This document shows, piece by piece, positions 5,281 to 25,093 of a stretch of 64,000 nucleotides of DNA. The DNA is taken from contig JAHZGA010000002.1 in NCBI GenBank assembly GCA_019421005.1, positions 10,204 to 74,203 of the forward strand. Reading direction: 5' to 3'. The translations under genes and the position numbers were made by a program. Within the stretch, counting starts at the first letter, position 1. Every line of letters starts with the position of its first letter. Source of the stretch: a bacterium (lineage in GTDB: Bacteria > Bacillota_I > Bacilli_A > RF39 > UBA660). Below the pieces are notes generated by a model. That model was not told the origin of the DNA. It saw only the letters and a list, made by a program, of their open reading frames with translations, and did not search any database.

Positions 5281-6592
5281 TTTTAAAACTCTTAATATAT
5301 TTTTTTCTCATATCATTCATTAATCGTTCAGCAACTTCAACAGATACTAAAGACATATCCATTGATGATGTATCTATTAATACAAAATCAGCAACGCTTT
5401 TTGAAAATAAGTCTTTTAATTTAGTTAAACTATCATTATATTCATCAATGTTATTTTTATTTAAAAATCTTCTTTCTTCAAGTGCTAAACTAGAATTATA
5501 ATCTCTTTTTAATGAAACTATAGCATCTGCATAAGTAACAACTAATACATCAATTAATTCTTTAGATAATTGACTATATTTTTTTCTAGAATTAAGATAA
5601 TTTTCTTCTGATATATCACCTTTTACATATCTACGATAATTCCAAATTTGTCGATCATTTATAGATCTATCAATTAATATAATTTCATTATTATTTAAAT
5701 TATCTAATAATTGTTTATAAACTAAATCAGCAATAGCAAGATTATTATCTTCTAAACTTAATTTATCTAATTCTTTTTTTAAGTGTTCTTTATAATATTT
5801 TGAAGTTGTAAATTCTTCAATTATTGATACATTAAATCCACCTTTTTTAAAAAAGTCATATAGATTATTTATTGTTGTTGTTTTACCAGTTCTTGGTGTT
5901 CCACTAAATTCAACAACAAATGGTTTTAACAAAGTACAGATTTTTTTTAATTTTTTCAATTCTAATTTTTGAGCATGTAATCTTTTTAAATTTTGATAAT
6001 ATTCTTTATTATCATCAAATATTACGTTATTTAAATATTCATCTTCTTTATAGTTAAAAACATTATCTAATATAGTTTTTAATTCATCAAACATAGGATG
6101 ATTTTGATTATCAGAAGTTAAACTTTTATAAATTTCACTATAATACCATTTTTGTTTTTCTTCTCCTCTTTTAAATTTAGAAAAATCTCTAGTACCTGTT
6201 TTTTGAAATTTAATCATTAAATCTTCTAAATTATCTATTTTATCTGCACATATAACTAATTTACTATTTAATGACATTTTTCTTATTTTATCAATTGTTT
6301 CTTTTTTTCTTTCTTCCCATGATAAAGTTTTGTTTTCCGAAACATCATTTACAATATTTGCAACTTCTAAACCAAATTTATTTTGAATATCATTTATTTT
6401 ATAATTGGTATCTTCTACAACATCGTGTAAATAACCAGCCATAACGGTTATATCATCACATCCGTATTCTTCTAATTTAGCACCTACACTTAAAGGATGA
6501 AATTGATATGGTTTATCTGGTTCATTTTTTCTAACTTGATTTGCATGAGCTTTTATAGCAAATTCTTTAGCAATTTGTTTTATATTTTCCAT
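5270..6592 (-). CDS. SpoT/RelA-type HD hydrolase domain fused to a P-loop nucleoside/nucleotide-kinase-like domain
   Basis: N-terminus: HANQVRK...PYQFHPLSVG...AGYLHDVVEDT (alarmone-hydrolase HD_4-like). C-terminus: Walker A GTPRTGKTT and LIDRSINDR (dNK-like ERS/DR region). GGAGGTG lies upstream of the ATG. Confidence 0.7.
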   Translation of the reverse strand: MENIKQIAKEFAIKAHANQVRKNEPDKPYQFHPLSVGAKLEEYGCDDITVMAGYLHDVVEDTNYKINDIQNKFGLEVANIVNDVSENKTLSWEERKKETIDKIRKMSLNSKLVICADKIDNLEDLMIKFQKTGTRDFSKFKRGEEKQKWYYSEIYKSLTSDNQNHPMFDELKTILDNVFNYKEDEYLNNVIFDDNKEYYQNLKRLHAQKLELKKLKKICTLLKPFVVEFSGTPRTGKTTTINNLYDFFKKGGFNVSIIEEFTTSKYYKEHLKKELDKLSLEDNNLAIADLVYKQLLDNLNNNEIILIDRSINDRQIWNYRRYVKGDISEENYLNSRKKYSQLSKELIDVLVVTYADAIVSLKRDYNSSLALEERRFLNKNNIDEYNDSLTKLKDLFSKSVADFVLIDTSSMDMSLVSVEVAERLMNDMRKKYIKSFKNGL

Positions 6593-11276: not shown

Positions 11277-12371
11277 TTAAAACTTTTTATTATATCTACT
11301 TATATTTAAAATTATTCCTATAGATGATAAAGTAATTAACAAACTAGAACCACCATAACTTAAAAATGGAAGTGTTACACCTGTTACTGGTATAAGACCA
11401 ACTACTACCATTAAATTTAAGGTTGTTTGAAAAGCAATTTGAAAAGTTAACCCAAATGCTAGAAACTTGGCAAATAAATCTTTAGAATTATAAGCAATTT
11501 TAAAACCTGTTATAATTATAGTTAAAAACAATGTTGTTATAATGATTATACCTAAAACACCAAATTCTTCGCTGATAATGGCAAAAATAAAATCAGTTTG
11601 AGGTTCAGGCAAATAAAAATGTTTTTGAATAGAATTTCCAAATCCTAATCCAAATAATCCACCTGGACCTATTGCATATAATGACTGAATAATTTGAAAA
11701 CCACTACCTAATGGATCACTCCAAGGATTTAAAAATGATAGTATTCTTTTTAAACGATAAGGTGCGATTAAGATTAACACAACTACTAAAGCAATTCCTA
11801 ATAATCCCATCTTTAAAAAGAATTTGAAATTTACACCACCTACAAACAATAGACCAACAATACTCATAACAATAATAACACCTGTTCCAAAGTCTGGTTG
11901 TAACATAATTAATCCAAATACTAATAAAGTTAGACCTAAAATAGGTAAAACACCCTTTTTTATATCCTTTATTTGCTTTTGATTTTTAGTCAAATATTTA
12001 GAAGTAAAAATAATAAGTCCTAATTTAGCAGCTTCACTAGGTTGTAATCCAAATGAACCTATTCCAAACCAACTCCTACTTCCATTTCTAACACTTCCTA
12101 TTCCTGGAATTAAAACTAATACCAATAAAATTAAACAAATAACTATAATTATATTAGCTTTATTATAAAAATGATTATAATTAAATTTACTAACTAAATA
12201 CATTATTATTAAGCCTAATATTAGAAAAATACTTTGATTAATAACATATTTATATGGATTTTCAAACTTATATTCTGACCATATAGCTGATGCAGAATAT
12301 ATCATAATTACACCAAAAACACTTATTAAAATTACACTAAAAAATAATAAAAGATTAATTTTTTTAGGCAT
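11277..12371 (-). CDS. ftsW: SEDS-family peptidoglycan glycosyltransferase (FtsW/RodA/SpoVE)
   Basis: About 10 TM helices and a C-terminus GLIPVTGVTLPFLSYGGSSLL typical of the family. Start chosen at ATG 12371 after GGAGGT; the ORF-track start at 12425 overlaps mraY. Confidence 0.9.
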   Translation of the reverse strand: MPKKINLLLFFSVILISVFGVIMIYSASAIWSEYKFENPYKYVINQSIFLILGLIIMYLVSKFNYNHFYNKANIIIVICLILLVLVLIPGIGSVRNGSRSWFGIGSFGLQPSEAAKLGLIIFTSKYLTKNQKQIKDIKKGVLPILGLTLLVFGLIMLQPDFGTGVIIVMSIVGLLFVGGVNFKFFLKMGLLGIALVVVLILIAPYRLKRILSFLNPWSDPLGSGFQIIQSLYAIGPGGLFGLGFGNSIQKHFYLPEPQTDFIFAIISEEFGVLGIIIITTLFLTIIITGFKIAYNSKDLFAKFLAFGLTFQIAFQTTLNLMVVVGLIPVTGVTLPFLSYGGSSLLITLSSIGIILNISRYNKKF

Positions 12372-12384
12372 TTGTTTACCTCCT

Positions 12385-13377
12385 TTAAATCCAAACTCCA
12401 AAAGCAATAGAAGCCATAGAAGCAATTAAACCAATTATCCAGAATAATTTTACAATATCTCTTTCATTCCATCCTATTTTTTCAAAAGTATGATGAATTG
12501 GTGTCATAGGGAACAATCTTTTTTTAGTTAATTTATAATAAGATATTTGAATTATACAAGATAATGTTTCTATAACAAAAACAATTCCAATTAGCACTAA
12601 TAATAACTCATGTCTTGTTAAGATTGAAATTGCACCTATTGTTGCTCCTAAACATAAAGAACCAGTATCTCCCATAAAAACTTTAGCAGGGCTTACATTA
12701 AATACCAAAAATCCTAATAAAGCTCCAAGTAAAGCAAAACAAAATATTGCAATTTCTTCATAACCATCTAGCCATCCTGTATTCCAAGTAATAAGTCCAA
12801 GTGTTAAAAAGGCGATTGCTGATAGTCCTCCAGCTAATCCATCTAGTCCATCAGTTAAATTAACCGCATTACTACTTGATAATAAAATAAATAAAATGAA
12901 TAATCCATAAAACCAACCAATGTTGATTTTAATTTTTAAGGTATGTATCCAAAATAAAGGTTCATTTCCACCTTTCATAAAAAAGTAAAAGAAAGTTATA
13001 GCAATTAACAATTGTAAAAGTAATTTACTTTTTTCTGTTAATCCTTTATTATTATGTCTTTTAATTATTAAATAATCATCTATAAACCCTATTATAGCGT
13101 ATCCTATAAAAGTAAAAACAACAATAAATAAACTATAACTTAAATCTATTTTATCTAATAAATATAAAATAGTTAAAGTAATCAAAGTAGGAACAATAAA
13201 TATAATTCCTCCCATAGTTGGAGTATGAGCTTTAGATTTATGACGATCTTTTAAATATACATTTAATTCTTGATTAACTTTAAATTTTTTTAAAAAAGGA
13301 ATTAATAATAACCCCACTACTACTGCTAGTAAAAAACAAGTCATCATAACTAAAACTGATTTAGTTAAAATTAACAT
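12385..13377 (-). CDS. mraY: phospho-N-acetylmuramoyl-pentapeptide transferase
   Basis: 330-aa polytopic protein with NAVNLTDGLDGLA and MGDTGSL motifs. GGAGGGG lies upstream. Confidence 0.95.
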   Translation of the reverse strand: MLILTKSVLVMMTCFLLAVVVGLLLIPFLKKFKVNQELNVYLKDRHKSKAHTPTMGGIIFIVPTLITLTILYLLDKIDLSYSLFIVVFTFIGYAIIGFIDDYLIIKRHNNKGLTEKSKLLLQLLIAITFFYFFMKGGNEPLFWIHTLKIKINIGWFYGLFILFILLSSSNAVNLTDGLDGLAGGLSAIAFLTLGLITWNTGWLDGYEEIAIFCFALLGALLGFLVFNVSPAKVFMGDTGSLCLGATIGAISILTRHELLLVLIGIVFVIETLSCIIQISYYKLTKKRLFPMTPIHHTFEKIGWNERDIVKLFWIIGLIASMASIAFGVWI

Positions 13378-15931: not shown

Positions 15932-17227
15932 TTATTTATTAATACAAAAAACTGCATAAAGTGGTACTGATTTTATATTGTTTTCAAGTCCAAAGTTTTT
16001 TGAAGATACTCGAATACTTACTTCAGGATTATATTTTTTTATATATTCATTCAAACTTTTACTATTAGTTCTTCTACCACTTTTAACTTCTATCGGAATT
16101 ATATTTCCATCAAGTTTTATTAAAAAATCTATTTCATATTTATCAAAATTATAGTAGTATAATTCTTTTGATTTAGGATATAATTCACAAGCTATATAAT
16201 TTTCAGTAAGTACACCTTTAAACATTTCATTTTTATCCATTAATATTTCTCTATAATCTAAATTAGATAATGATCTTAATAATCCAACATCACTTAAATA
16301 TAATTTAAATTTATCCGAATTAATAAAAGCTTTTAATGGCGATTCATTTTTTTCAGTTAAATCACACTTAAGTACCATATTACTTGCAAGTAACCAATCA
16401 AGACTACTTTCATATCTAATTTTTCTAGCATCCTTATCAACAATACTATATTTAAATGTATTATTTACTCTAGCAAGCTCTTTGGGAATAGAGTTATAAA
16501 TTTGATTATTCTTAATTCCTTCACTATTTTCTGTATATTTATTCATATCTGCTAAATAAGAGGTAATAATTTGTTCTTGAAGTTCAAAATTAACATGAGA
16601 TATATTACATTCATTATCTAAAAAATTATTAATAATAGCTGGCATTCCACCTAATACTAAATACTTTTTATATAATTCTAGTGCTTTCTCATGAATAGGT
16701 TTCATTAATGATTCATTAGAATTATAATGTGTTATAATTTCATTAATTAATTTTTTTTCTCCTAAAGCAATTAAATATTCTTCAAAATTCATCGGATATA
16801 AATATTTGATTGTCACCTTACCTACTGGAAAAGATGATTTAAATCTATTAATCTTAACTCCTAATAGAGAACCCGCACAAACTATTTTATATGGTTTTTT
16901 ACTTTCACAAAAATATTTTAAAGAAGTTATAGCCCTTTCACTTACTTGAATTTCATCTAAAAATATTATTGTTTTTTCAGGATCAATAATTATATTTTTA
17001 ATAATTTCAATTTTTTCTATTATTATATCTGGATCAATAGTATTATCAAATATTTCAGCTATATTTTCCTCTTTATCCAGGTTTATATAAACATAATTAT
17101 CAAAATTAGCCTTACAAAACTTTTCCAATATATATGTTTTTCCAGTTTGTCTAGCACCAACTAACATAAGTGGCATTTTATAATCTTTCTTCCATTTTTT
17201 TAATTCTTCTTCTATTTTCCTATACAT
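15932..17227 (-). CDS. AAA+ ATPase of the DUF4143-containing family
   Basis: Walker A GARQTGKT, Walker B IIFLDEIQ, and a C-terminal part typical of the widespread 'ATP-binding protein, DUF4143' family (recognised from memory). Start chosen at ATG 17227 after GAGGTGA. Confidence 0.8.
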   Translation of the reverse strand: MYRKIEEELKKWKKDYKMPLMLVGARQTGKTYILEKFCKANFDNYVYINLDKEENIAEIFDNTIDPDIIIEKIEIIKNIIIDPEKTIIFLDEIQVSERAITSLKYFCESKKPYKIVCAGSLLGVKINRFKSSFPVGKVTIKYLYPMNFEEYLIALGEKKLINEIITHYNSNESLMKPIHEKALELYKKYLVLGGMPAIINNFLDNECNISHVNFELQEQIITSYLADMNKYTENSEGIKNNQIYNSIPKELARVNNTFKYSIVDKDARKIRYESSLDWLLASNMVLKCDLTEKNESPLKAFINSDKFKLYLSDVGLLRSLSNLDYREILMDKNEMFKGVLTENYIACELYPKSKELYYYNFDKYEIDFLIKLDGNIIPIEVKSGRRTNSKSLNEYIKKYNPEVSIRVSSKNFGLENNIKSVPLYAVFCINK

Positions 17228-17408
17228 GAAAATCACCTCTATATATATTTTAACACATTTCGTACAAAACACACATATTTTTATTGACTTTTTCGTACAT
17301 TTTGCACGAAAACCATGTTTTTGTGTAAAATATTTAAATATTATACAAAAATTATCAATTGAATATTCAAATAATTTATAAATTCCAGTTTTATATTAAC
17401 ATACTAAT

Positions 17409-17951
17409 TTATAATTTTATACTATCAAATATATTTTCTTCTATATCATAAATTGTAAATTTCTTGCTTTCATATATCATATATGTAGGTTTATTATTTT
17501 CTTTAGGTATAGATATTGAACCAACATTAATGTATACCATATCTTCATTCTTTTTTATGTAAGGTATATGTTCATGACCATATATCAATATACCTTTTCT
17601 ATTATATTTTTTATGTTTCTCAAAACTATATTCATTTCCATGAGTTAAATACATATCTAAACCGTCCACACATATTAAAGCCAAATTATTACATATTGGA
17701 AAATCACTTGCCTTAATATCGACATCAGAATCACAATTGCCTTTCAAACAAATAATTTTATCGGAGTATTTAGTTAATATATCTTTAACACTCACACTGT
17801 TAATTTTATATTTTTGATTATATGTAGGTCCAGAATAATATAAATCCCCAAGGACTACCAATTTATCTATTTTTTCTTTCTTAATAATATCTTCTATTTT
17901 TTTTAAATTAACATCAATACCATGTATATCTGATATAAATAATATCTTCAT
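17409..17951 (-). CDS. YfcE/MJ0936-family metallophosphoesterase
   Basis: MKILFISDIHG, LGDLYY, GNCD, GHEH motifs. AAGGAGAG lies upstream. Confidence 0.85.
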   Translation of the reverse strand: MKILFISDIHGIDVNLKKIEDIIKKEKIDKLVVLGDLYYSGPTYNQKYKINSVSVKDILTKYSDKIICLKGNCDSDVDIKASDFPICNNLALICVDGLDMYLTHGNEYSFEKHKKYNRKGILIYGHEHIPYIKKNEDMVYINVGSISIPKENNKPTYMIYESKKFTIYDIEENIFDSIKL

Positions 17952-18003
17952 ATCTAACTCTCCTTATAAAATCTTTTCAATTTTATATTAACTATACTAA
18001 TAA

Positions 18004-18993
18004 TTAATCTATCTCTTTTTCATAATAATTAACAATAACTTTTTCCCCATTTGGATAACATTCATAACCAGTTTTAATATATTTGGTAAAACCCATATTA
18101 AAATATATTTGCATATTTCGTACTTCACATGGTTCTACACCCAATGTTAATGATGTAAAACCTCTTTCTTTTAAATCTTTTTCCATAAATTTGTAAATCA
18201 TAGAAAAATATCCTTTATTCTCAAAATCCTTATTTGTTCTAAAAGCACTCAAATAAGCTTTTTTACTATCAATTAAACCATCTTTATTTTGCATATCTAA
18301 ATCATTTTTAGAAATAATTGCTGTACATTCAGTAATTATTTCTTCATTTAATAATCCCATATAGACAATTCTTGTATCTAAATTTCTCAAAGAAATATTT
18401 TTAAATTGTTTCCACATTAAAGAATTATTATTTCTAGCTATCTCTTCATCCCATTTTTTTATAATCATGTCTTTATTAGCTATAACACATTTATAATTTG
18501 TATCACTATCTTTTATTTTTTTTATATCTATTAATCCTCTAGTATGATAACCTTGTTTTTTATAAAACTCAATAGCAGTCTTATTATAAGCAAACACATC
18601 AATATAAATATATTCACATCCAACACTTTTAAAATAATATTCCATTTTATTCATTAGTTTTTGCCCTATACCTTTACTTCTAGTTTTTTTAGATACTATA
18701 AGTTCTGATATTTCACCACTTTTAGGGCATTTATAATCTAAATAATCATACTCATCATAAGTTCTAATATATCCCATAATTAAACCTATTATTTTATCAT
18801 TTTCTTTTGCTAAATAACATTTTCCTTTATTATTATTTACTTCTTCTAAATCTAAAATAGCCATTTTATCTCTATATTCTGAATGCAATTGATCTAAATT
18901 ATCTCTATCAATTGATAAAATATATTCCTCTAATTCAACTAATAAATCTTTTACATCCTCTAAATATTTATCTTCGTATTCTAATATTTTCAT
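18004..18993 (-). CDS. GNAT-family N-acetyltransferase (two tandem GNAT-like halves)
   Basis: The first half has RSKGIGQKLMNKME (Q/RxxGxG/A acetyl-CoA loop). The second half has ENKGYFSMIYKFME. Confidence 0.75.
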   Translation of the reverse strand: MKILEYEDKYLEDVKDLLVELEEYILSIDRDNLDQLHSEYRDKMAILDLEEVNNNKGKCYLAKENDKIIGLIMGYIRTYDEYDYLDYKCPKSGEISELIVSKKTRSKGIGQKLMNKMEYYFKSVGCEYIYIDVFAYNKTAIEFYKKQGYHTRGLIDIKKIKDSDTNYKCVIANKDMIIKKWDEEIARNNNSLMWKQFKNISLRNLDTRIVYMGLLNEEIITECTAIISKNDLDMQNKDGLIDSKKAYLSAFRTNKDFENKGYFSMIYKFMEKDLKERGFTSLTLGVEPCEVRNMQIYFNMGFTKYIKTGYECYPNGEKVIVNYYEKEID

Positions 18994-19591
18994 TTTTCAA
19001 ATAATAATCCTTTATTAATTCATATTTGGAAAAAGTTAATATTCCATCATAAAAGGTATAAGGTGATTCTTTTGTTACTTCACCAGTTTTACTAAAACCT
19101 AATTTTTCAAATATTTTACACGATGCTGTATTATCTTTTACTGCACTGGAAGAAATACCATTTATTCCTACTTCATTAAAAAGATAAGTTATCATTGCTT
19201 CAATAGCTTCTGTTGCATAACCTTTCCTTTGATAAATTGGATCAATATACCACCCTACATCACGAATAGTAATATCTTCGCCACTTTCTTGAGCAGTAAC
19301 TTGTCCTATAACTTCTTCTTTACCGCTATTGGTATATTCATTCTTTAAAAATACACTCCATCCAAATACATCACTACTATTAGCATTATCTACTTTAGAT
19401 TTATAAAATTTTTCTTGTGTTTTCCATGACCAATAGTCTTTATCATTCGCATGTTTTTTAGAACTTACTAAATACCATTTATTTACCTCTGGTATCATTA
19501 ATATTTCCCATAATCTTTTTTGTTCTTCCATTTGGGAACTTCTTAAATATAACCTTTCAGTTTCTATTGTTTTACTACCAAGCATTTTCAC
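18968..19591 (-). CDS. GNAT-family N-acetyltransferase (RimJ/RimL-like)
   Basis: TERLYLR N-terminal signature and YQRKGYATEAIEAMI acetyl-CoA loop. GTG start follows AGAGGTGA. Confidence 0.8.
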   Translation of the reverse strand: MKMLGSKTIETERLYLRSSQMEEQKRLWEILMIPEVNKWYLVSSKKHANDKDYWSWKTQEKFYKSKVDNANSSDVFGWSVFLKNEYTNSGKEEVIGQVTAQESGEDITIRDVGWYIDPIYQRKGYATEAIEAMITYLFNEVGINGISSSAVKDNTASCKIFEKLGFSKTGEVTKESPYTFYDGILTFSKYELIKDYYLKNENIRIRR

Positions 19592-19685
19592 TATAAATCA
19601 CCTCTTTATCTTAATTATTAATATCTTATTCAAATTTTTTATCTTTCATAAAGTTGGATCAAATATCTAAATTTTATCAACCTTA

Positions 19686-20225
19686 TTATAAAGGTAATAC
19701 TTTATCTGTTTTAATTCTAACAATAACCCCTTTAACATTCTTATCAAATTTTCTCCAAGTGGTTTCTTCAAATATTTCAAAGCCTACATCTAAAAATGTT
19801 TTTAAAGTATTTTCTCTATCAATTTCAAAACTATCATATAAATATTCTATTCCATTATTATAAGCAACTTTTATTAATAACTTTAAAGCATCCTTGGAAT
19901 AACCTTTATTTCTATATTTAGCCTCAATTACTATACCACAATCATAATAATCACTATCTTTATCATATTGATAATTTACATATCCAACATACTCATTAAT
20001 ATCACAATCTTTTATATATGCAAAATATCTATTTTCATTTATTCTTCTATCATAAACCTCTTGCCATCTTTCTTTAGGAAAATCAATACATCCTGTATCA
20101 TAATGATATCCAAAATAAGTTACATCATATCCAGCATTATAACTCATTGTAGTTGGATCACTTTCTAATTTTTGTTCATAAGAGTATTCTTTTATTTGTG
20201 GAACTACTAATTTTATATTTTTCAT
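19686..20225 (-). CDS. GNAT-family N-acetyltransferase
   Basis: YRNKGYSKDALKLLI acetyl-CoA loop. The start directly abuts the stop of the upstream ASCH-deaminase gene. Confidence 0.8.
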   Translation of the reverse strand: MKNIKLVVPQIKEYSYEQKLESDPTTMSYNAGYDVTYFGYHYDTGCIDFPKERWQEVYDRRINENRYFAYIKDCDINEYVGYVNYQYDKDSDYYDCGIVIEAKYRNKGYSKDALKLLIKVAYNNGIEYLYDSFEIDRENTLKTFLDVGFEIFEETTWRKFDKNVKGVIVRIKTDKVLPL

Positions 20226-20975
20226 TTATACTCTTTCTTTTCCCCACCAACTAGGAATTAAAGTTTCTAACTTAATTGTCTCTTTATTTTTTAATTCCTT
20301 TAATATTTCAATATTCTTACTATTCTTATCTAACTGCATTAAATATTCCCTACAAACTCCACATGGATAAATAACATTTCCTTTTGAATCAATACACACC
20401 AATTTTATAATTTCATTTTCTCCATTAGTTATCATATTTGCAATAGCATTTCTTTCTGCACACATTCCTAAACTTGAAGCAGTATCTATACAAACTCCAG
20501 TATAAATATTATGATTTTTAGTTAATATTGCTGCACTAACTTGACCAGCATAAATCATACCTGATACTTTTCTAGAATTTCTAACCATTTTAGCTTTTTT
20601 ATATAACTCTTTCCAAACAGTATTTTCACTATACAAGTATTCCACCTCAATAGCGTATACGCCATTTTTCTTAATAGCCTCTTCATATCCATTAATTTTG
20701 TTTACATTTTTAATTGATTTTTCTTTATTATTTGTTGAAGATGTTGTATATTTTGTACCTTCTAAAGTAAATAACTCATCTAGCGTATTATAATAATTTA
20801 CACGTTCTACTCTTACATAAAATATACCTAATTTGTTACTAGTAAATTCAATAACATCGTTTTTTCTTAATTTGCCATAATCATACTTTCCAGTATTTGC
20901 CCTTATTTCTATTTTTTTAGAACCTTTTTTAATACTTTCACTGGCTCTATCATTAATTTCTAATTTAAATACCAT
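20226..20975 (-). CDS. ASCH (PUA-like) domain fused to a cytidine/blasticidin-S-deaminase-family zinc deaminase
   Basis: N-terminus: IKKGSKKIEIRANTG...NDVIEFTS...GVYAIEVEYL (ASCH-like). C-terminus: CAERNAI ... PCGVCREYL (CDA-fold zinc ligands). Confidence 0.75.
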   Translation of the reverse strand: MVFKLEINDRASESIKKGSKKIEIRANTGKYDYGKLRKNDVIEFTSNKLGIFYVRVERVNYYNTLDELFTLEGTKYTTSSTNNKEKSIKNVNKINGYEEAIKKNGVYAIEVEYLYSENTVWKELYKKAKMVRNSRKVSGMIYAGQVSAAILTKNHNIYTGVCIDTASSLGMCAERNAIANMITNGENEIIKLVCIDSKGNVIYPCGVCREYLMQLDKNSKNIEILKELKNKETIKLETLIPSWWGKERV

Positions 20976-20989
20976 TTTCTTTCTCCTTT

Positions 20990-21015
20990 AAAAAAATTCT
21001 GCATAATGCAGAATT
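20990..21015 (-). terminator. intrinsic terminator of the leader (attenuator) upstream of the ASCH-deaminase gene
   Basis: Minus strand reads AATTCTGCA-TTA-TGCAGAATT followed by a U7 run. The RBS AAAGGAG and ATG 20975 follow immediately. Confidence 0.7.
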
Positions 21016-21036
21016 AATTAAAGTAAAATGATACAT

Positions 21037-21093
21037 CTAGTATATTAAAAGTGCGATTAATTCTGCATTATTTATAATTCGTAAATTTTTCAT
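21037..21093 (-). CDS. 18-codon leader peptide ORF (MKNLRIINNAELIALLIY)
   Basis: Not in the ORF track. AAAGGAGTG lies 8 nt upstream of ATG 21093, and the ORF ends at TAG 21037-21039. Codons 8-13 constitute antiterminator segment A. Confidence 0.45.
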   Translation of the reverse strand: MKNLRIINNAELIALLIY

Positions 21094-21123
21094 AATTAAT
21101 CACACTCCTTTCTTTAAAACAAT

Positions 21124-21152
21124 TTACACATTCATTATAAAATATTTATTCT
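21124..21152 (-). promoter_or_regulatory. consensus sigma-A-type promoter for the leader/ASCH-deaminase operon
   Basis: Minus strand reads TTGACA, a 17-nt spacer, then TATAAT (21152-21147 and 21129-21124). The predicted TSS is about 21117, just upstream of the leader SD. Confidence 0.65.
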
Positions 21153-21217
21153 ACTTTGTCAAATCATTTGTAAATATATTTTTTTTATGTTAAAATAACT
21201 TGAACGGAGGAATACGT

Positions 21218-21916
21218 ATGAAAAAATTTATTTTACCTATAGTCATTATATTCATAATTCTTGTTTTTAGTTTTAATATTCCTAAAGATAATAAAACTGA
21301 AAAAATAAAAAAAGTTGATGAAATTAAAGAACAAGAAAATATAAAAGAACAAAATAACTTTGATAATTTGATGAAAAACTATGATAACAAAAACATTCTT
21401 GCTTTTGTAGAAATTCCTAATGTTCTTTTAGAACCAATCGTTCAAGCTGATGATAATGAATACTATTTAAACTATAACATCAACAATGAAAAAGATATCA
21501 ACGGAGCGACATTTTTAGATTATAGAATTAATATAAATAATTCTAATAAAATATTAATTTATGGCCACAGTGATAAGTCCAAAACATTACCCTTTACTAA
21601 ATTATCAAATTATAAAGATAAAGATTTCTTTATAAAAAATCCATATATATATTTATATACTAAAGATAATAATTATAAATTTAAAATCTTTTCTACCTAT
21701 ATCGAAACTAGTGATTTTGATTACTTAAATATTGAAAGTTTTAATGGACTAACTTGGTTAGAACATTTAAAAAAGCTTAAAAATAAATCATTTTATGAAA
21801 CAAATGTTGAAGTAGAAGATAATAAAAAAATCATTATTTTACAAACTTGTAGTTTTGATAATGAGTATAAAAATTATAGTCAAAAATATCATTTAGTAAT
21901 AGGAATATCTACATAA
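21218..21916 (+). CDS. srtB: class B sortase
   Basis: N-terminal anchor, LIYGHS (catalytic His region), IIILQTCS (TLxTC-type Cys). ATG 21218 follows GGAGGAA. Confidence 0.8.
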   Translation: MKKFILPIVIIFIILVFSFNIPKDNKTEKIKKVDEIKEQENIKEQNNFDNLMKNYDNKNILAFVEIPNVLLEPIVQADDNEYYLNYNINNEKDINGATFLDYRININNSNKILIYGHSDKSKTLPFTKLSNYKDKDFFIKNPYIYLYTKDNNYKFKIFSTYIETSDFDYLNIESFNGLTWLEHLKKLKNKSFYETNVEVEDNKKIIILQTCSFDNEYKNYSQKYHLVIGIST

Positions 21917-21980
21917 CATTGACACATAGAAATTGATTTTATAAAACTTATAAGCTATAATTAAATTAGGATGTGATTTT

Positions 21981-22916
21981 ATGGATATTAATGAACTAGA
22001 AAAATTAAGAAAAAAAATTGTTTTAAACAAAGTAACTATTTATCTTATCTACCTTGCCCTTTACCCAGTATTTATTATTTTATGTAACCAATACCTTAAA
22101 ACTTATATTGAAAATGGTGCTGGAATAGCTGTTTATGTAGTCGGAATAGTATTTTTTATAGTCTTTACTACTATAACAGATAATATTGTTAATAAAAAAA
22201 ATCTAAATTTTTTCATTAGAAAATATAAAGAAAAATTTGTTGAAAATACTTTTAAACAAGTATTCGATAATTTTACTTATGAACCTAATCAAGGTTTAAG
22301 TAAAGAAAGATTTAGGAAAACTAATATTTTAAAATATGATGATATATATTCCTCAAATGATTATATGCAAGGTACATATCATAATACTAGTTTTGAAATA
22401 GCTGATGTAGAAATTAAAGAAGAACATACCTCTACCGATAGTGATGGTCATAGAAATACTTATTACTTAACAGTCTTTTTAGGAAAATGGTTTATTTTTA
22501 ATTTTAATAAAAACTTTAAAAATAATCTTCAAATTGTTGAAAAAGATTTTAAAACATTTAATGAAAGAAATTGGGGAAATGAAAAATTACATAAACTAGA
22601 ATTAGAAAGCGTATCATTTAATAAGGATTTTAAAGTATATTGCCATGATGATCATGAAGCTTTTTATATCTTGACACCTAACTTTATGAATAATATTGAA
22701 AATCTATGTAAAAAAACTAAAGGTTATATAGTATTAGGATTTATGAATAATCAATTACATATTGGTTTAAATACTCTTAAAGATTCTTTTGAACCAAATA
22801 TATTTAAAAAAATTGATGAAAATATAATTTCTAATGAAGTTAATAATAATATCAAAGAAATAATAACTTTTATTGATGAATTAGGTTTAGATAACAACTT
22901 ATTTAAGGAGAATTAA
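21981..22916 (+). CDS. DUF3137-like membrane protein
   Basis: Two N-terminal TM helices followed by a cytoplasmic domain (..YMQGTYHNTSFEIADVEIKEEH..TVFLGKWFIFNFNKNF..) that I recognise from memory as DUF3137. This family is the usual partner of LemA. Confidence 0.55.
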   Translation: MDINELEKLRKKIVLNKVTIYLIYLALYPVFIILCNQYLKTYIENGAGIAVYVVGIVFFIVFTTITDNIVNKKNLNFFIRKYKEKFVENTFKQVFDNFTYEPNQGLSKERFRKTNILKYDDIYSSNDYMQGTYHNTSFEIADVEIKEEHTSTDSDGHRNTYYLTVFLGKWFIFNFNKNFKNNLQIVEKDFKTFNERNWGNEKLHKLELESVSFNKDFKVYCHDDHEAFYILTPNFMNNIENLCKKTKGYIVLGFMNNQLHIGLNTLKDSFEPNIFKKIDENIISNEVNNNIKEIITFIDELGLDNNLFKEN

Positions 22917-22917
22917 T

Positions 22918-23445
22918 ATGTGGATAATATTAGGAATTGTTTTAATAATTTTAATATGGTATATATCAACCTATAATAAATTTAAAAAATTAATTATAAA
23001 AGTAGATGAAGCTGATTCAGGTATAGATGTTGCACTTACAAAAAGATATGATTTAATTACTAAAATGGTTGATGTTGTTAAAGGTTATACTAAACATGAA
23101 AAAGAAACTATTTTAGAAGTAATTAAATTAAGAAAACATATGAGTATTAATGAAAAAAATGAAGTTTTAAATAAAATGAATAATTCAATAAATAAAATTG
23201 AAATTATAGCTGAAAATTATCCTGATTTAAAGGCTAGTGAAAATTTTAAAATATTACAAAAATCTTTATTAAATGTTGAAGAACATTTAGCAGCATCTAG
23301 AAGAATGTATAATTCTAATGTATCAATTTATAATCAATATTTAGAATCTTTTCCATCAATGATTATAGGATCAATTTTAAAACTCACTAAAAAAGAATAT
23401 TTTGAAGCAGATGATGAAAAAACTGTTAATATATCATTAAAGTAG
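22918..23445 (+). CDS. lemA: LemA family protein
   Basis: N-terminal TM helix, YNKFKKLIIKVDEADSGIDVALTKRYDLI..., and NYPDLKASENFKILQKSLLNVEEHLAASRRMYN, typical of LemA. Translationally coupled to the upstream gene (TAATATG). Confidence 0.85.
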   Translation: MWIILGIVLIILIWYISTYNKFKKLIIKVDEADSGIDVALTKRYDLITKMVDVVKGYTKHEKETILEVIKLRKHMSINEKNEVLNKMNNSINKIEIIAENYPDLKASENFKILQKSLLNVEEHLAASRRMYNSNVSIYNQYLESFPSMIIGSILKLTKKEYFEADDEKTVNISLK

Positions 23446-23468
23446 TAAACACTTGTTTACTACTTTTA
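23439..23468. terminator. bidirectional terminator between lemA (+) and the ASCH-dCMP deaminase gene (-)
   Basis: AGTAGTAAAC-ACTT-GTTTACTACT hairpin with T-runs/A-runs on both sides. It overlaps both stop codons. Confidence 0.65.
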
Positions 23469-24293
23469 ATATCCTCTTACACCTTCTAGGCTTTCATCAT
23501 TTTCAATTAATTCTTGAGTTAATATAGTTCGGTAACTTGTTTTACTATCACGAATAATTATTTTTTTTATTCCACTATTAATAATTACTCTTTTACACAT
23601 TGAACAAGGCATTGATTTATCAACATATTCTTGAGTTTTTGAGTCTATTCCTACCATATAAAGAGTACCATCAAGCATATCTTTTCTTGAAGCTGATATA
23701 ATTGCATTTTGTTCAGCATGAACACTACGACACATTTCATATCTTTCCCCTCTAGGAATATTAAGGCTTTCTCTAATACAATATCCTAAATCATCACAAT
23801 TTTTTCTTTTTCTAGGGGCACCATTATAACCAGTTGAAATTATTTCATCATTTTTAACTATAATTGCTCCCCATTTTTTTCTTAAACATGTTGATCTCTC
23901 TAAAGCAGTTTCAGCTATGTTTAAATAATAATTATTTTTATCAATTCTATTGACATTATTTATAAGTTTAATTTCTATACCAACAACACCATATTTTTTT
24001 ATATCATCTTCACTGTAATATTGTTCCATATCATTGGGATCACTTTTTTCATCTTTATTATATCCTAAACTTATTTTATCAAATTTTTCATATAATTTTT
24101 TAAAACTATCAAATAAATGTAATTTTAAAACTTCAACAGTAATTACTTCACTATTAGATAAATTAGTAAACTCAATTAAATCACCTGGTTGAATTTTTTT
24201 TCTTTTTTCATCAAATAATCTTAATTCAATTGTTTTAGTTTGATTTTTTATTTTTTGAAATGGATTATCTTGTAATTTCATTCTATATATCAT
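23466..24293 (-). CDS. ASCH (PUA-like) domain fused to a dCMP/ComEB-type deoxycytidylate deaminase
   Basis: N-terminus: FQKIKNQTKTIELRLFDEKRKKIQPGDLIEFTN...KYGVVGIEIKLI (ASCH-like). C-terminus: HAEQNAI ... PCSMCKRVIINSGI. Start chosen at ATG 24293 after AGAGGTG. Confidence 0.8.
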   Translation of the reverse strand: MIYRMKLQDNPFQKIKNQTKTIELRLFDEKRKKIQPGDLIEFTNLSNSEVITVEVLKLHLFDSFKKLYEKFDKISLGYNKDEKSDPNDMEQYYSEDDIKKYGVVGIEIKLINNVNRIDKNNYYLNIAETALERSTCLRKKWGAIIVKNDEIISTGYNGAPRKRKNCDDLGYCIRESLNIPRGERYEMCRSVHAEQNAIISASRKDMLDGTLYMVGIDSKTQEYVDKSMPCSMCKRVIINSGIKKIIIRDSKTSYRTILTQELIENDESLEGVRGY

Positions 24294-24376
24294 TTTATAC
24301 ACCTCTAAATTAATAATAACATATTAAAAAGTTATATTCAATATTTAAAAAAAAATATATTAAATTTAACATATTT

Positions 24377-25093
24377 TTATAAATTAAATATAAAGACAAA
24401 CCTATCTCTATTTTGTAAATCTTTTTCAATCTTAATAATACTTTGGGGAAAATACTTTAAAGCTATATTTTTTACCATCTCACCTTGAAGAGCACCTATT
24501 TCAAAGGCTAATAAATTTTTTTTATTTAAATAATTTACACAACCACTTAATATTTTTTCATAAAATTCTAAACCATTATTTGAAGCATATAAAGCTATAT
24601 TAGGTTCGTTATTTTTAACGATATCTTCTATTTCTTCATCTTCACTTATATAAGGAGGATTACTAATTAAAATATCTTGTTTTTCATAAATAGGTTCTAA
24701 TAAATTACCTAATAAAAATTCAATTTCAACATTATTTTCTAATGCATTATTTCTAGCAACATCTAAAGCTTTATCAGAAATATCTACTGCAACCACTTTA
24801 GAATCTGGTAATTTTTTTTTCAAAGTTATAGCTATACAACCACTACCTGTTCCTATATCAGCTATTTTTATGTCTTTTGAAAAATATTTCAAAATATATT
24901 TATACGTTCTACTAACTAATTCTTCTGTTTCAAATCTAGGAATTAAAACATTTTCATTAACATTAATTTTCAAACCATAAAAATTAACATTTCCAACAAT
25001 ATATTGAACTGGAATATTATTTTTTAATTTTAAAATAGCTTCATCCAATTTATTTGGTTCTATATATTTTTTTAAATATTCTAAATCACTCAC
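24377..25093 (-). CDS. prmC: release-factor glutamine N5-methyltransferase
   Basis: [13 protein letters not shown] motif and ISNPPYIS (NPPY). Overlaps the prfA stop. Confidence 0.92.

Follow-up and report, generated by a model that had tools for sequence, protein, structure and literature searches.

A probable ribosome-mediated transcription attenuator precedes an ASCH-cytidine deaminase/GNAT operon in an uncultured gut bacterium

The leaders of vmlR, bmrB-bmrCD, tlrB and ytbDE each combine an anti-antiterminator, an antiterminator and a terminator, and are flipped between these structures by antibiotic-stalled ribosomes (PMC9226507, PMC4191407, PMC6851288, bioRxiv 10.1101/2025.01.13.632840). 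In the case of Bacillus subtilis vmlR, a uORF encoding MIN lies in the anti-antiterminator hairpin SL-1 (PMC9226507), and in bmrB-bmrCD and tlrB (yxjB) a leader peptide is translated, whose slowed translation in the presence of ribosome-targeting drugs causes induction (PMC4191407, PMC6851288). The ermC and cat leaders control translation by alternative hairpins in which the downstream ribosome-binding site is either exposed or hidden (RBS; cf. PMC8274638, PMC5499644), and the attenuator of the trp operon is discussed in PMC4191407.

Here we describe a leader in a 64-kb window (the whole stretch of DNA that was analysed) from an uncultured gut bacterium known as a MAG. We read it as a leader-peptide attenuator of transcription that works through the ribosome, like those of B. 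subtilis vmlR, bmrB and tlrB, with translation impaired by ribosome-targeting compounds as the likely trigger, and assign this reading a probability of about 0.72. Judged by comparison of sequences, it is an undescribed, well-supported example of a known switch type that is conserved with compensatory changes in more than 60 related loci. Its elements are as follows.

21134..21162, minus strand: sigma-70-type promoter (TTGACA 21162-21157, 17-nt spacer, TATAAT 21139-21134)
21121..21127, minus strand: 5' arm of helix P0, GUAAAUU, at the predicted transcript 5' end, pairing with 21087-21081
21111-21103, minus strand: leader Shine-Dalgarno (SD) sequence AAAGGAG(TG), upstream of ATG 21093
21094..21109, minus strand: segment 1, AGGAGUGUGAUUAAUU, leader SD and spacer, 5' arm of the anti-antiterminator
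21037..21093, minus strand: leader ORF of 18 codons plus TAG, MKNLRIINNAELIALLIY (ATG 21093, TAG 21039-21037)
21081..21087, minus strand: 3' arm of P0, AAUUUAC, within leader codons 3-5
21056..21071, minus strand: segment 2a, AUAAUGCAGAAUUAAU (segment A of the preliminary description), 5' arm of the antiterminator
21047..21062, minus strand: segment 2b, AAUUAAUCGCACUUUU, 3' arm of the anti-antiterminator, with a 7-nt overlap with 2a
21003..21018, minus strand: segment 3, AUUAAUUCUGCAUUAU (segment B of the preliminary description), pairing with 2a or, via 21015-21007, with segment 4
20990..21015, minus strand: intrinsic terminator, AATTCTGCA-TTA-TGCAGAATT (stem 21015-21007/21003-20995, loop UUA, T run to 20990)
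20226..20989, minus strand: RBS (20989-20983) and gene (ATG 20975) for a 249-aa fusion of ASCH and a tetrameric-type cytidine deaminase (PF00383)

The preliminary description had put a TTGACA-17-TATAAT promoter at 21152-21124; the promoter does exist, as a 12/12 match and the sole one in 17000-24500, but those positions are about 10 nt off, the correct ones being 21162-21134. Transcription is predicted to start at ~21128-21126 (minus strand), and at orthologous loci a -35/-10 pair lies at an equal distance from GTAAAT. Directly 3' of the promoter follows a short ORF that has an SD and a start codon of its own, namely the 18-codon leader ORF that had been reported at 21093-21037 and that we find exactly there. 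P0, a 5'-terminal helix absent from the earlier account, takes in the predicted transcript 5' end, and its arms covary (GTAAC:GTTAC in leader L036, GTAATTAA:TTAATTAC in L055 and GTAATTTTA:TAAAATTAC in L119).

Segments A (21071-21056) and B (21018-21003) form the perfect 16-nt complement that had been claimed, and perfect inverted repeats of 16 nt or more within 100 nt occur once in the 64-kb window, whereas 100 dinucleotide shuffles of the window average 0.05 such repeats; four of these shuffles contained at least one. The terminator proposed to form between B and a further downstream segment is likewise present at 21015-20990; it is the sole terminator-like site in 17000-24500, and its T run (20996-20990) comprises seven T, two within the stem and five after it. 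The SD at 20989-20983 and ATG 20975 of the first gene follow directly, as had been noted. What escaped the first reading is the helix 1:2b (21109-21094 with 21062-21047), in which the leader SD is sequestered and which shares sequence with the 3' part of A; this gives the switch a total of four segments instead of three. The earlier claim that A becomes free only if the middle of the ORF is clear of ribosomes is accordingly true but incomplete, as A is also unavailable without any ribosome: the free RNA would terminate because segment 1 captures segment 2b, and not merely because A is unavailable. Segment 1, which contains GUGAUUAA, is invariant or near-invariant in 62 leaders. No other copy of the leader was found in the window, either with a pattern allowing two mismatches or with a covariance model run with filters off; the sole copy lies at 21045-21131, and the covariance-model match that supports segment 1 scores 74 bits (E 2e-10). 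A weak match at 11737-11817 sits within an FtsW/RodA-like ORF and was rejected.

The decisive evidence is conservation in other genomes. At 34 orthologous ASCH-cytidine-deaminase loci the covariance model recovers 24 full leaders and one partial leader (25/34); it also matches 76 of 80 metagenome loci, chosen by a pattern that itself fixed part of the 1:2b core (four chance matches being rejected), as well as two stand-alone cytidine deaminase (CDA) loci. The covariation set comprises 62 distinct leaders, with compensatory changes in every helix. In the OFF state 93.2% of cells are paired, compared to 34-49% with slid partners, and in the ON state (2a:3 plus P0) 91.6%, compared to 31-49%, with 0/500 shuffles reaching the covariation score. 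Taken alone, helix 2a:3, an antiterminator that overlaps the leader ORF and excludes the terminator, pairs in 91.3% of cells, both sides being changed in 6/13 pairs. The terminator helix is paired in 94% of cells and altered on both sides at four pairs, and a hairpin with T tract, called by explicit hairpin detection, stands between ORF and gene in ~60 distinct leaders. The anti-antiterminator 1:2b is paired in 89-93% of cells; its variation is mostly one-sided (G.U), with compensatory pairs in L019 (C-G), L036 and L055. Three-way changes are seen in L011 (GGAUU/AAUCC/GGAUU) and L107 (GUGGG/CUCUC/GAGAG), and three positions of 2a:3 carry G.U pairs in 17, 14 and 16 leaders; so many G.U pairs imply that the element is an RNA made from the minus strand. 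The mutually exclusive pairings A:B (2a:3) and B:C (3:4) are thus both conserved, through compensatory changes and changes to G.U pairs, and the A, B and C segments covary in homologous upstream regions, where the preliminary description had suggested looking.

Curated RNA families gave no counterpart: an Rfam scan of 20000-22000 (E up to 10) returned nothing relevant, its best match being freshwater-2 (26.8 bits vs a gathering threshold of 49.9, E 0.17), which covers the terminator part only, and no cis-regulatory model (riboswitches, T-box, PyrR site, known leaders) matched. The leader had no match in annotated plasmids, where a search with the downstream protein retrieved just stand-alone CDA homologues, on four plasmids. 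Stand-alone CDA genes of Clostridia (L037-L081) carry no leader, which argues against a general role of the element in cdd regulation.

The leader ORF is maintained, frame 0 being free of stop codons through segment 2 in 62/62 leaders, compared to 0/62 and 2/62 for the other two frames; the distances from ATG to segment 2 are multiples of three, as are the leader indels, every leader has 9-10 nt between SD and ATG, and the stop codon lies 8-32 nt past TTAATCA (62 leaders). Among 43 distinct peptides we recognised no drug-dependent arrest motif of the IFVI, RLR/+x+, RYR or MIN types. The nucleotides that encode the peptide motif [AVS][EGD]L[IV]T are those constrained at the RNA level, and L119-type leaders read them in another frame; peptide conservation was therefore dropped as evidence for an arrest peptide, the conserved residues being those encoded by paired nucleotides.

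Folding energies assign each state its thermodynamic preference. For the free RNA, the minimum free energy (MFE) fold combines 1:2b with the terminator, at -29.8 to -35 kcal/mol (fold z-score -4.3; 0/200 shuffles fold equally well), the forced 2a:3 fold reaches -24.2 kcal/mol, and the duplex energies of 1:2b, 2a:3 and 3:4 are -16.3, -17.6 and -9.9 kcal/mol. When a ribosome was walked in silico along the 62 leaders, the terminator was present in 13, 23 and 35% of them with codon 1, 2 or 3 in the P site, in 84-92% at codons 5-15 and in ~30% at the last four sense codons. Such masked-ribosome folding, a check that had been proposed with the preliminary description, predicts termination for a ribosome in mid-ORF and readthrough for one on codons 1-3 or on the end of the ORF. 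The free-RNA MFE fold is without terminator in 19/62 leaders, so that kinetic folding must be invoked. The NusG pause motif TTNTTT is found between segments 2 and 3 as TTCTTT in L003-type leaders; by eye it is absent from this interval in the window leader and in the L023 group.

In light of these data, the leader would be OFF by default: segment 1, which carries the leader's own SD, would pair with segment 2b as soon as the latter is transcribed, leaving segment 3 free to pair with segment 4 into the terminator, and transcription would stop before the ASCH-deaminase/GNAT operon. Normal translation would leave it OFF as well, with the moving ribosome covering segment 2 during synthesis of segments 3 and 4. 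A ribosome held at the start or at the first few codons would mask segment 1, and one held at the last codons would mask segment 2b; either would free segment 2a to pair with segment 3 over 16 bp, pre-empting the terminator and allowing the operon to be transcribed. Termination, readthrough and the site at which the ribosome stalls are here predictions of the folding models, and the trigger is probably translation impaired by ribosome-targeting compounds. In stand-alone deaminase relatives the same logic of segments 1, 2 and 3 would be linked to a hairpin that hides the RBS of the gene instead of to a terminator; indeed, L036, L055, L119, L129 and L142, all before stand-alone CDA genes, fold into 1:2 and a hairpin that sequesters the SD. 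The layout of ribosome-mediated attenuation that had been recognised at this locus thus has comparative data behind each of its structural claims.

Akin to vmlR, the leader combines a default anti-antiterminator hairpin with an intrinsic terminator, holds the start region of its ORF inside the anti-antiterminator, and is predicted to form the antiterminator when a ribosome held at initiation or at early codons blocks that hairpin; vmlR has an SD-sequestering hairpin too, for which the stand-alone CDA variants provide the equivalent. The vmlR uORF, however, has three codons, whereas the ORFs here range across loci from 15 to 26 codons and run through segment 2; the SD is single-stranded in vmlR and paired in the anti-antiterminator here; vmlR itself encodes an ABC-F protein, the cargo here being deaminase, GNAT, APH or ANT genes; the TTNTTT pause site is established for vmlR, unlike for the window leader; and the two leaders share no sequence similarity. 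With bmrB-bmrCD and tlrB the leader shares a translated peptide and, probably, an induction that follows when ribosome-targeting drugs slow the translation of this peptide, although the bmrB ORF has 53 codons with the terminator inside it (here the ORF ends before segment 3) and tlrB has an RYR arrest motif, none being recognisable here. The variants L036, L055, L119, L129 and L142 resemble the translational attenuators of ermC and cat in having a leader ORF with alternative hairpins by which the downstream RBS is exposed or hidden, whereas the window copy would act through an intrinsic terminator, and the peptide sequences are unrelated. The ermC leader has its stall site inside segment 1 and is a two-hairpin system without an SD-containing anti-antiterminator, and cat is a case of a drug-modifying acetyltransferase that can be controlled by a leader peptide. 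Finally, the Escherichia coli trp attenuator likewise has four segments with 1:2, 2:3 and 3:4 alternatives, in which segment 2 is freed by a ribosome on segment 1 and masked by one at the stop codon; it differs in its regulatory codon run and biosynthetic cargo, and in that segment 1 consists of internal codons there and of the SD/start region here.

The genes behind the leader are, as had been proposed, an ASCH-cytidine deaminase gene followed by GNAT genes; the remainder of the operon spans 17409..20225 (minus strand).

20225-19686, minus strand: GNAT
19591-18968, minus strand: GNAT
18993-18004, minus strand: double GNAT
17951-17409, minus strand: YfcE-type phosphodiesterase

The first protein matches NCBIfam PRK05578 (77 bits), PDB cytidine deaminases (E 1e-12) and the ASCH proteins 1s04/2z0t; 14/16 family members have the ASCH domain. 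Elsewhere the leaders precede stand-alone CDA, GNATs, APH plus ANT(9)/AadA-like genes, or (L141) ASCH plus a nucleoside phosphorylase. The cargo families are those of drug-modifying enzymes (CDA/BSD fold, GNAT, APH, ANT(9)/AadA-like); all of them, the GNAT, APH and ANT genes included, score far under the cut-offs of the NCBI (NCBIfam) resistance models, and the deaminase lies closer to housekeeping CDAs, so that any resistance role of the cargo is conjectural.

The same attenuator might report general translation capacity or transcription-translation coupling (amino-acid downshift, stringent response, slow growth in the gut) rather than antibiotics, with the operon serving nucleoside salvage, in which ASCH strips N4-acyl groups from cytidine and CDA makes uridine. 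Its architecture would be identical to that of an antibiotic-sensing attenuator, and the induction of vmlR, too, is sensitive to (p)ppGpp and to compromised protein synthesis (PMC9226507). ASCH enzymes of the YqfB type are N4-acetylcytidine hydrolases (PMC6972931), tetrameric CDAs accept N4-substituted cytidines as substrates (PMC9897663), the deaminase domain is nearer to housekeeping cytidine deaminases (E 1e-12) than to blasticidin-S deaminase (E 3e-6 or weaker), and the nucleoside phosphorylase pair behind L141 would fit as well. We nevertheless consider this explanation rather unlikely: the leader also drives the APH plus ANT-like pair and several GNAT-only sets, which are hard to fit into pyrimidine salvage, and the Rfam scan was without a PyrR-type or other nucleotide-sensing motif. 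A classical charged-tRNA attenuator, in which ribosomes short of one amino acid would stall at regulatory codons (Asn AAT AAT, or early Lys, Asn or Leu codons), would account for the trp-like layout and for the frequency of Asn in the leader peptides, where NN often stands just before segment 2a. Asn and Lys codons are the commonest in such A+T-rich DNA, and no single-codon run is conserved across the 43 distinct peptides; moreover, the AAT AAT codons lie within the 2a:3 helix, where a stalled ribosome would mask segment 2a and favour termination, and the downstream genes are not biosynthetic, making this account very improbable.

Two further explanations dispense with the translating ribosome. 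P0 and 1:2b are both conserved and together have a pseudoknotted topology, and the segment 1 region is unusually invariant, as might be expected of a metabolite- or protein-sensing RNA in which the ORF is incidental or secondary. An untranslated sensor would leave unexplained an ORF kept open and in frame despite indels in 62/62 leaders; besides, the loop between segments 1 and 2 varies from 24 to 54 nt and has no conserved unpaired nucleotides, Rfam gave no match, and no regulator gene accompanies the operon across the loci examined, leaving such a sensor only a slight chance. The 16-mers do form a perfect inverted repeat in DNA and had been suggested as possible operators of a dimeric repressor, but their arms lie ~+57 to +125 downstream of the predicted start (+1 ~21127) with variable spacing, segment 4 forms a third copy that with the T tract makes a canonical terminator, and dozens of Watson-Crick pairs are replaced by G.U, which would be mismatches in a DNA palindrome; on account of this G.U covariation we reject the operator reading, whose probability we regard as negligible.

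The leader-peptide attenuator ties poorly annotated ASCH-cytidine deaminase fusions, GNATs and APH/ANT relatives to a single translation-coupled signal, which suggests that these enzymes act on ribosome-targeting or nucleoside compounds. Literature searches found the B. subtilis analogues and the enzymology of ASCH and CDA proteins; no description of the leader element and no paper on a leader-controlled deaminase emerged, in line with the earlier remark that no attenuator had been described for an ASCH-deaminase gene. More tentatively, and with the odds against it, the leader family could be the common sensor of a small, inducible 'detoxification regulon' among uncultured gut Bacilli with small genomes, turning on ASCH-CDA together with acetyl-, phospho- and nucleotidyl-transferases in response to ribosomes that are trapped while initiating or terminating, for example by blasticidin-S-like peptidyl-nucleoside or aminoglycoside-type gut compounds, with a terminator or an RBS hairpin as output depending on the locus. 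If so, this would be the first case of a deaminase under the control of a leader-peptide attenuator, and would offer a handle on the natural inducer and on the substrates of unannotated enzymes. One sensor module appears to be reused for transcriptional and translational control, and the leader, which is not in Rfam, could serve as a search model for inducible modification genes in metagenomes and as a reporter for inducer discovery. With its promoter, leader peptide and three alternative helices, it is a rare comparatively validated prediction for gut bacteria without genetics.

The element lies on the minus strand in front of a gene that encodes an ASCH domain fused to a cytidine deaminase (CDA), and comprises the following parts:

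21162-21157 and 21139-21134, minus strand: promoter, TTGACA and TATAAT, spacer 17 nt
21127-21121 with 21087-21081, minus strand: 5'-terminal helix P0, GUAAAUU (predicted transcript 5' end) with AAUUUAC (leader codons 3-5)
21109-21094 with 21062-21047, minus strand: segment 1 (AGGAGUGUGAUUAAUU) with segment 2b (AAUUAAUCGCACUUUU), the anti-antiterminator
21093-21037, minus strand: leader ORF MKNLRIINNAELIALLIY, ATG 21093 to TAG 21037, preceded by SD AAAGGAG
21071-21056, minus strand: segment 2a (A)
21018-21003, minus strand: segment 3 (B), perfect 16-nt complement of 2a, with which it forms the antiterminator
21015-20995, minus strand: terminator hairpin AATTCTGCA-TTA-TGCAGAATT (3:4, segment 4 being C), T run to 20990
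20989-20983, minus strand: SD of the next gene, ATG 20975
20975-20226, minus strand: first gene, ASCH plus tetrameric-type cytidine deaminase fusion

The leader SD and ORF, the A:B complementarity, the B:C hairpin with its T run and the RBS and ATG behind it were all present as in the preliminary description, and its promoter motif also stands, about 10 nt away from the 21152-21124 assigned to it (correct, 21162-21134). The promoter is the sole 12/12 match within 17000-24500, the hairpin is the sole terminator-like site in 7.5 kb, perfect inverted repeats of 16 nt or longer within 100 nt number one in the window versus 0.05 on average in dinucleotide-shuffled sequence, and the fold of the leader region is 4.3 sd better than that of shuffles. 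The minimum free energy (MFE) fold contains in addition a long helix between segment 1, which is the leader's own SD plus spacer, and segment 2b, which shares nucleotides with the 3' part of A; the switch proposed from A, B and C, of which A:B and B:C hold, therefore has four segments, and P0 is a further helix that had been missed. Duplex energies are -16.3 (1:2b), -17.6 (2a:3) and -9.9 kcal/mol (3:4), and in free RNA 1:2b plus terminator (-29.8 kcal/mol, the MFE) is more stable than the antiterminator (-24.2 kcal/mol).

Genome loci, 80 in all, were fetched by protein, the leader playing no part in selection. Of the 34 full-length orthologous loci among them, 24 matched a covariance model built from the leader core and one more (L007) has a deleted remnant of the element; in the remaining nine the gene lies inside another operon or has no leader within the flank. 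A metagenome scan for segment 1 and the start of segment 2b only returned 80 loci, 76 of which the model accepted, the four rejected being ordinary genes. As this set was chosen on segment 1 and 7 nt of segment 2b, these positions are invariant in it by construction; they are equally invariant in the protein-selected set. In an alignment of 62 distinct full leaders, 93.2% of cells were in standard pairs for 1:2b plus terminator (34-49% with partners slid) and 91.6% for 2a:3 with P0 (31-49% slid). The covariation sought in homologous upstream regions was indeed found: four terminator pairs and 6/13 antiterminator pairs changed on both sides, and 0/500 shuffles reached the covariation score of 2a:3 with P0. 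Three-way compensation is visible by eye in L011 (GAAUU/AAUUC/GAAUU to GGAUU/AAUCC/GGAUU), and L107 carries GUGGG in segment 2a alongside a CUCUC/GAGAG terminator. Helix 1:2b varies mostly from G-C to G.U, with a clean compensatory pair in L019 (C-G for U-A) and others in L036 and L055 (GUGAUCAA:UUGGUCAC, GUGGUCAA:UUGAUCAC). P0, whose 3' arm occupies ORF positions +4 to +19, has five or more versions (GTAAAT:ATTTAC, GTAAGT:ATTTAC, GTAAC:GTTAC, GTAATTAA:TTAATTAC, GTAATTTTA:TAAAATTAC). The abundant G.U pairs show that it is RNA of this strand on which selection acts, and rule out a reading of the 16-mers as DNA operators bound by a protein.

The leader ORF appears to be translated. In 62/62 leaders the ATG lies 9-10 nt downstream of the SD and the frame is open through segment 2 (other frames, 0/62 and 2/62); ATG-to-segment-2 distances are 24, 30, 33, 36, 39, 51 and 54, so indels were multiples of three; and the stop falls 8-32 nt after TTAATCA, in every case before segment 3. 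Common to the 43 distinct peptides are an initial MKN(L/I) and the motif [AVS][EGD]L[IV]T encoded over segment 2. Since these residues coincide with paired nucleotides, and L119-type leaders read the same nucleotides in another frame (RFNH), a sequence-specific arrest peptide is neither supported nor excluded. L003-type leaders (e.g. L003 2410-2440) have an extra hairpin, UCCUAA...UUAGGA, from the 3' end of segment 2b (anti-SD) to the leader-stop region; it is confined to leaders with CUCCU, and the window copy lacks it.

We masked a 28-nt ribosome footprint at each codon of the 62 leaders and scored the terminator in the MFE. It formed in 13%, 23% and 35% of leaders with the P site at codons 1, 2 and 3, in 84-92% at codons 5-15, in about 30% at the last four sense codons and in 61% with the stop codon in the A site; for free leaders, 19/62 lacked it, MFE prediction being noisy for A+U-rich RNA. 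In the window sequence, a ribosome at the start or stop gave the 16-bp antiterminator and one in mid-ORF the terminator. These results led to a model in which ribosome position would decide between termination and readthrough: an empty leader, or one traversed freely by a ribosome, would lead to termination, whereas a ribosome held at the beginning would mask segment 1, and one held at the end segment 2b, either permitting readthrough. Every sequence-testable feature of a leader-peptide transcription attenuator was found; we put the probability that the element is a ribosome-mediated attenuator at roughly 0.72-0.8.

The sensor also occurs in other settings. Five stand-alone deaminase genes (L036, L055, L119, L129, L142) have the same segments 1 to 3 and leader ORF without a T tract; here segment 3 competes with a hairpin burying the deaminase gene's SD, a translational version whose MFE is 1:2 plus the SD-sequestering hairpin. 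Most stand-alone CDA genes of Clostridia lacked such a leader in the covariance-model search. Elsewhere the cargo is a GNAT orthologous to the window operon's second gene (L144), GNAT-GNAT-ASCH-nucleoside phosphorylase (L141), an unknown protein and, after it, a GNAT (L107), or an APH-family phosphotransferase of 481 aa that carries a C-terminal extension, together with a downstream ANT(9)/AadA-like nucleotidyltransferase (L146 218-2458, minus strand). The N-terminal residues of that extension resemble, by eye only, the N-terminus of a DUF553 (transglutaminase-like) protein of L019. In L019 (200-1630) this protein follows the leader, and a 310-nt A+T-rich spacer, the DUF553 gene and a GNAT fragment separate leader and terminator from the ASCH-deaminase gene, which suggests that cargo was rearranged behind a fixed sensor. 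A natural deletion between direct repeats TGCAGAATT of segments 2a and 4 in L007 (2096-2160) removed segment 2b, segment 3 and the terminator and created an in-frame fusion of the leader and ASCH-deaminase ORFs, probably yielding constitutive expression. It is a natural loss-of-terminator form, as are L138 (~5560-5730, minus strand; GC-rich insert in place of the terminator), L014 (2343-2500) and L092 (terminator weakened, no T tract) and L029 (2285-2500; decayed, without leader ORF).

The downstream ASCH-deaminase/GNAT operon was borne out by homology. The first product matches Pfam PF00383 and NCBIfam cytidine deaminase PRK05578 (77 bits, cut-off 74), and in the PDB cytidine deaminases (E ~1e-12) and blasticidin-S deaminases (3e-6 or weaker); its N-terminal half matches ASCH proteins 1s04 and 2z0t, and 14/16 members of its family carry ASCH PF04266. 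A GNAT gene directly adjoins it, followed by two more, of which one encodes a double GNAT, and by a YfcE-type phosphodiesterase. The same strand encodes, 2.5 kb upstream (23466-24302, minus strand), a paralogous fusion of ASCH with a dCMP/ComEB-type deaminase, which has no leader copy and whose N-terminal half is 28% identical to that of the regulated protein; between it and a convergent LemA-family gene, a 12-nt inverted repeat (23439-23466) is probably a bidirectional terminator. At 11737-11817 (plus strand) a weak covariance-model match (19.5 bits) that coincides with a 12-nt inverted repeat falls within an FtsW/RodA-like ORF (11277-12425, minus strand); it was rejected as a second leader copy, being a chance match. 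The contig is a gut-metagenome scaffold, the relatives being MAGs of uncultured gut 'Bacilli' (e.g. CAG:914, CAG:460, CAG:710).

Since drug-modifying enzymes belong to the same families as the cargo, ribosome-targeting compounds are the most likely inducers, a tentative assignment to which we give slightly less than an even chance. The main alternative, that the same switch reports a general slowdown of translation and the operon serves salvage of N4-acylated cytidines, is plausible in light of ASCH YqfB-type amidohydrolases (PMC6972931) and of CDAs able to convert N4-substituted cytidines (PMC9897663). Induction by ribosome-targeting compounds has precedent in B. subtilis vmlR, whose uORF is located in an anti-antiterminator and stalls at initiation under lincomycin or retapamulin (PMC9226507); bmrB-bmrCD (PMC4191407) and tlrB (PMC6851288) use the same switch logic (summarized in bioRxiv 10.1101/2025.01.13.632840). 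The window element resembles these leaders in that a held ribosome leads to readthrough, experimentally established there and predicted here from evidence that is all computational, but is unrelated to them in sequence.

The element does not qualify as an amino-acid operon leader, no Rfam family fits it, annotated plasmids searched for the leader gave no match, and literature searches turned up no report of a cytidine or blasticidin deaminase under leader control, in keeping with the preliminary description, which knew of no attenuator for an ASCH-deaminase gene. Together with its attenuator features, this makes it a well-supported candidate for a new representative of a known regulator type, distinguished by a leader SD that sits within the anti-antiterminator, by a covarying 5'-terminal helix and by a single sensor that would serve transcriptional and translational control alike.
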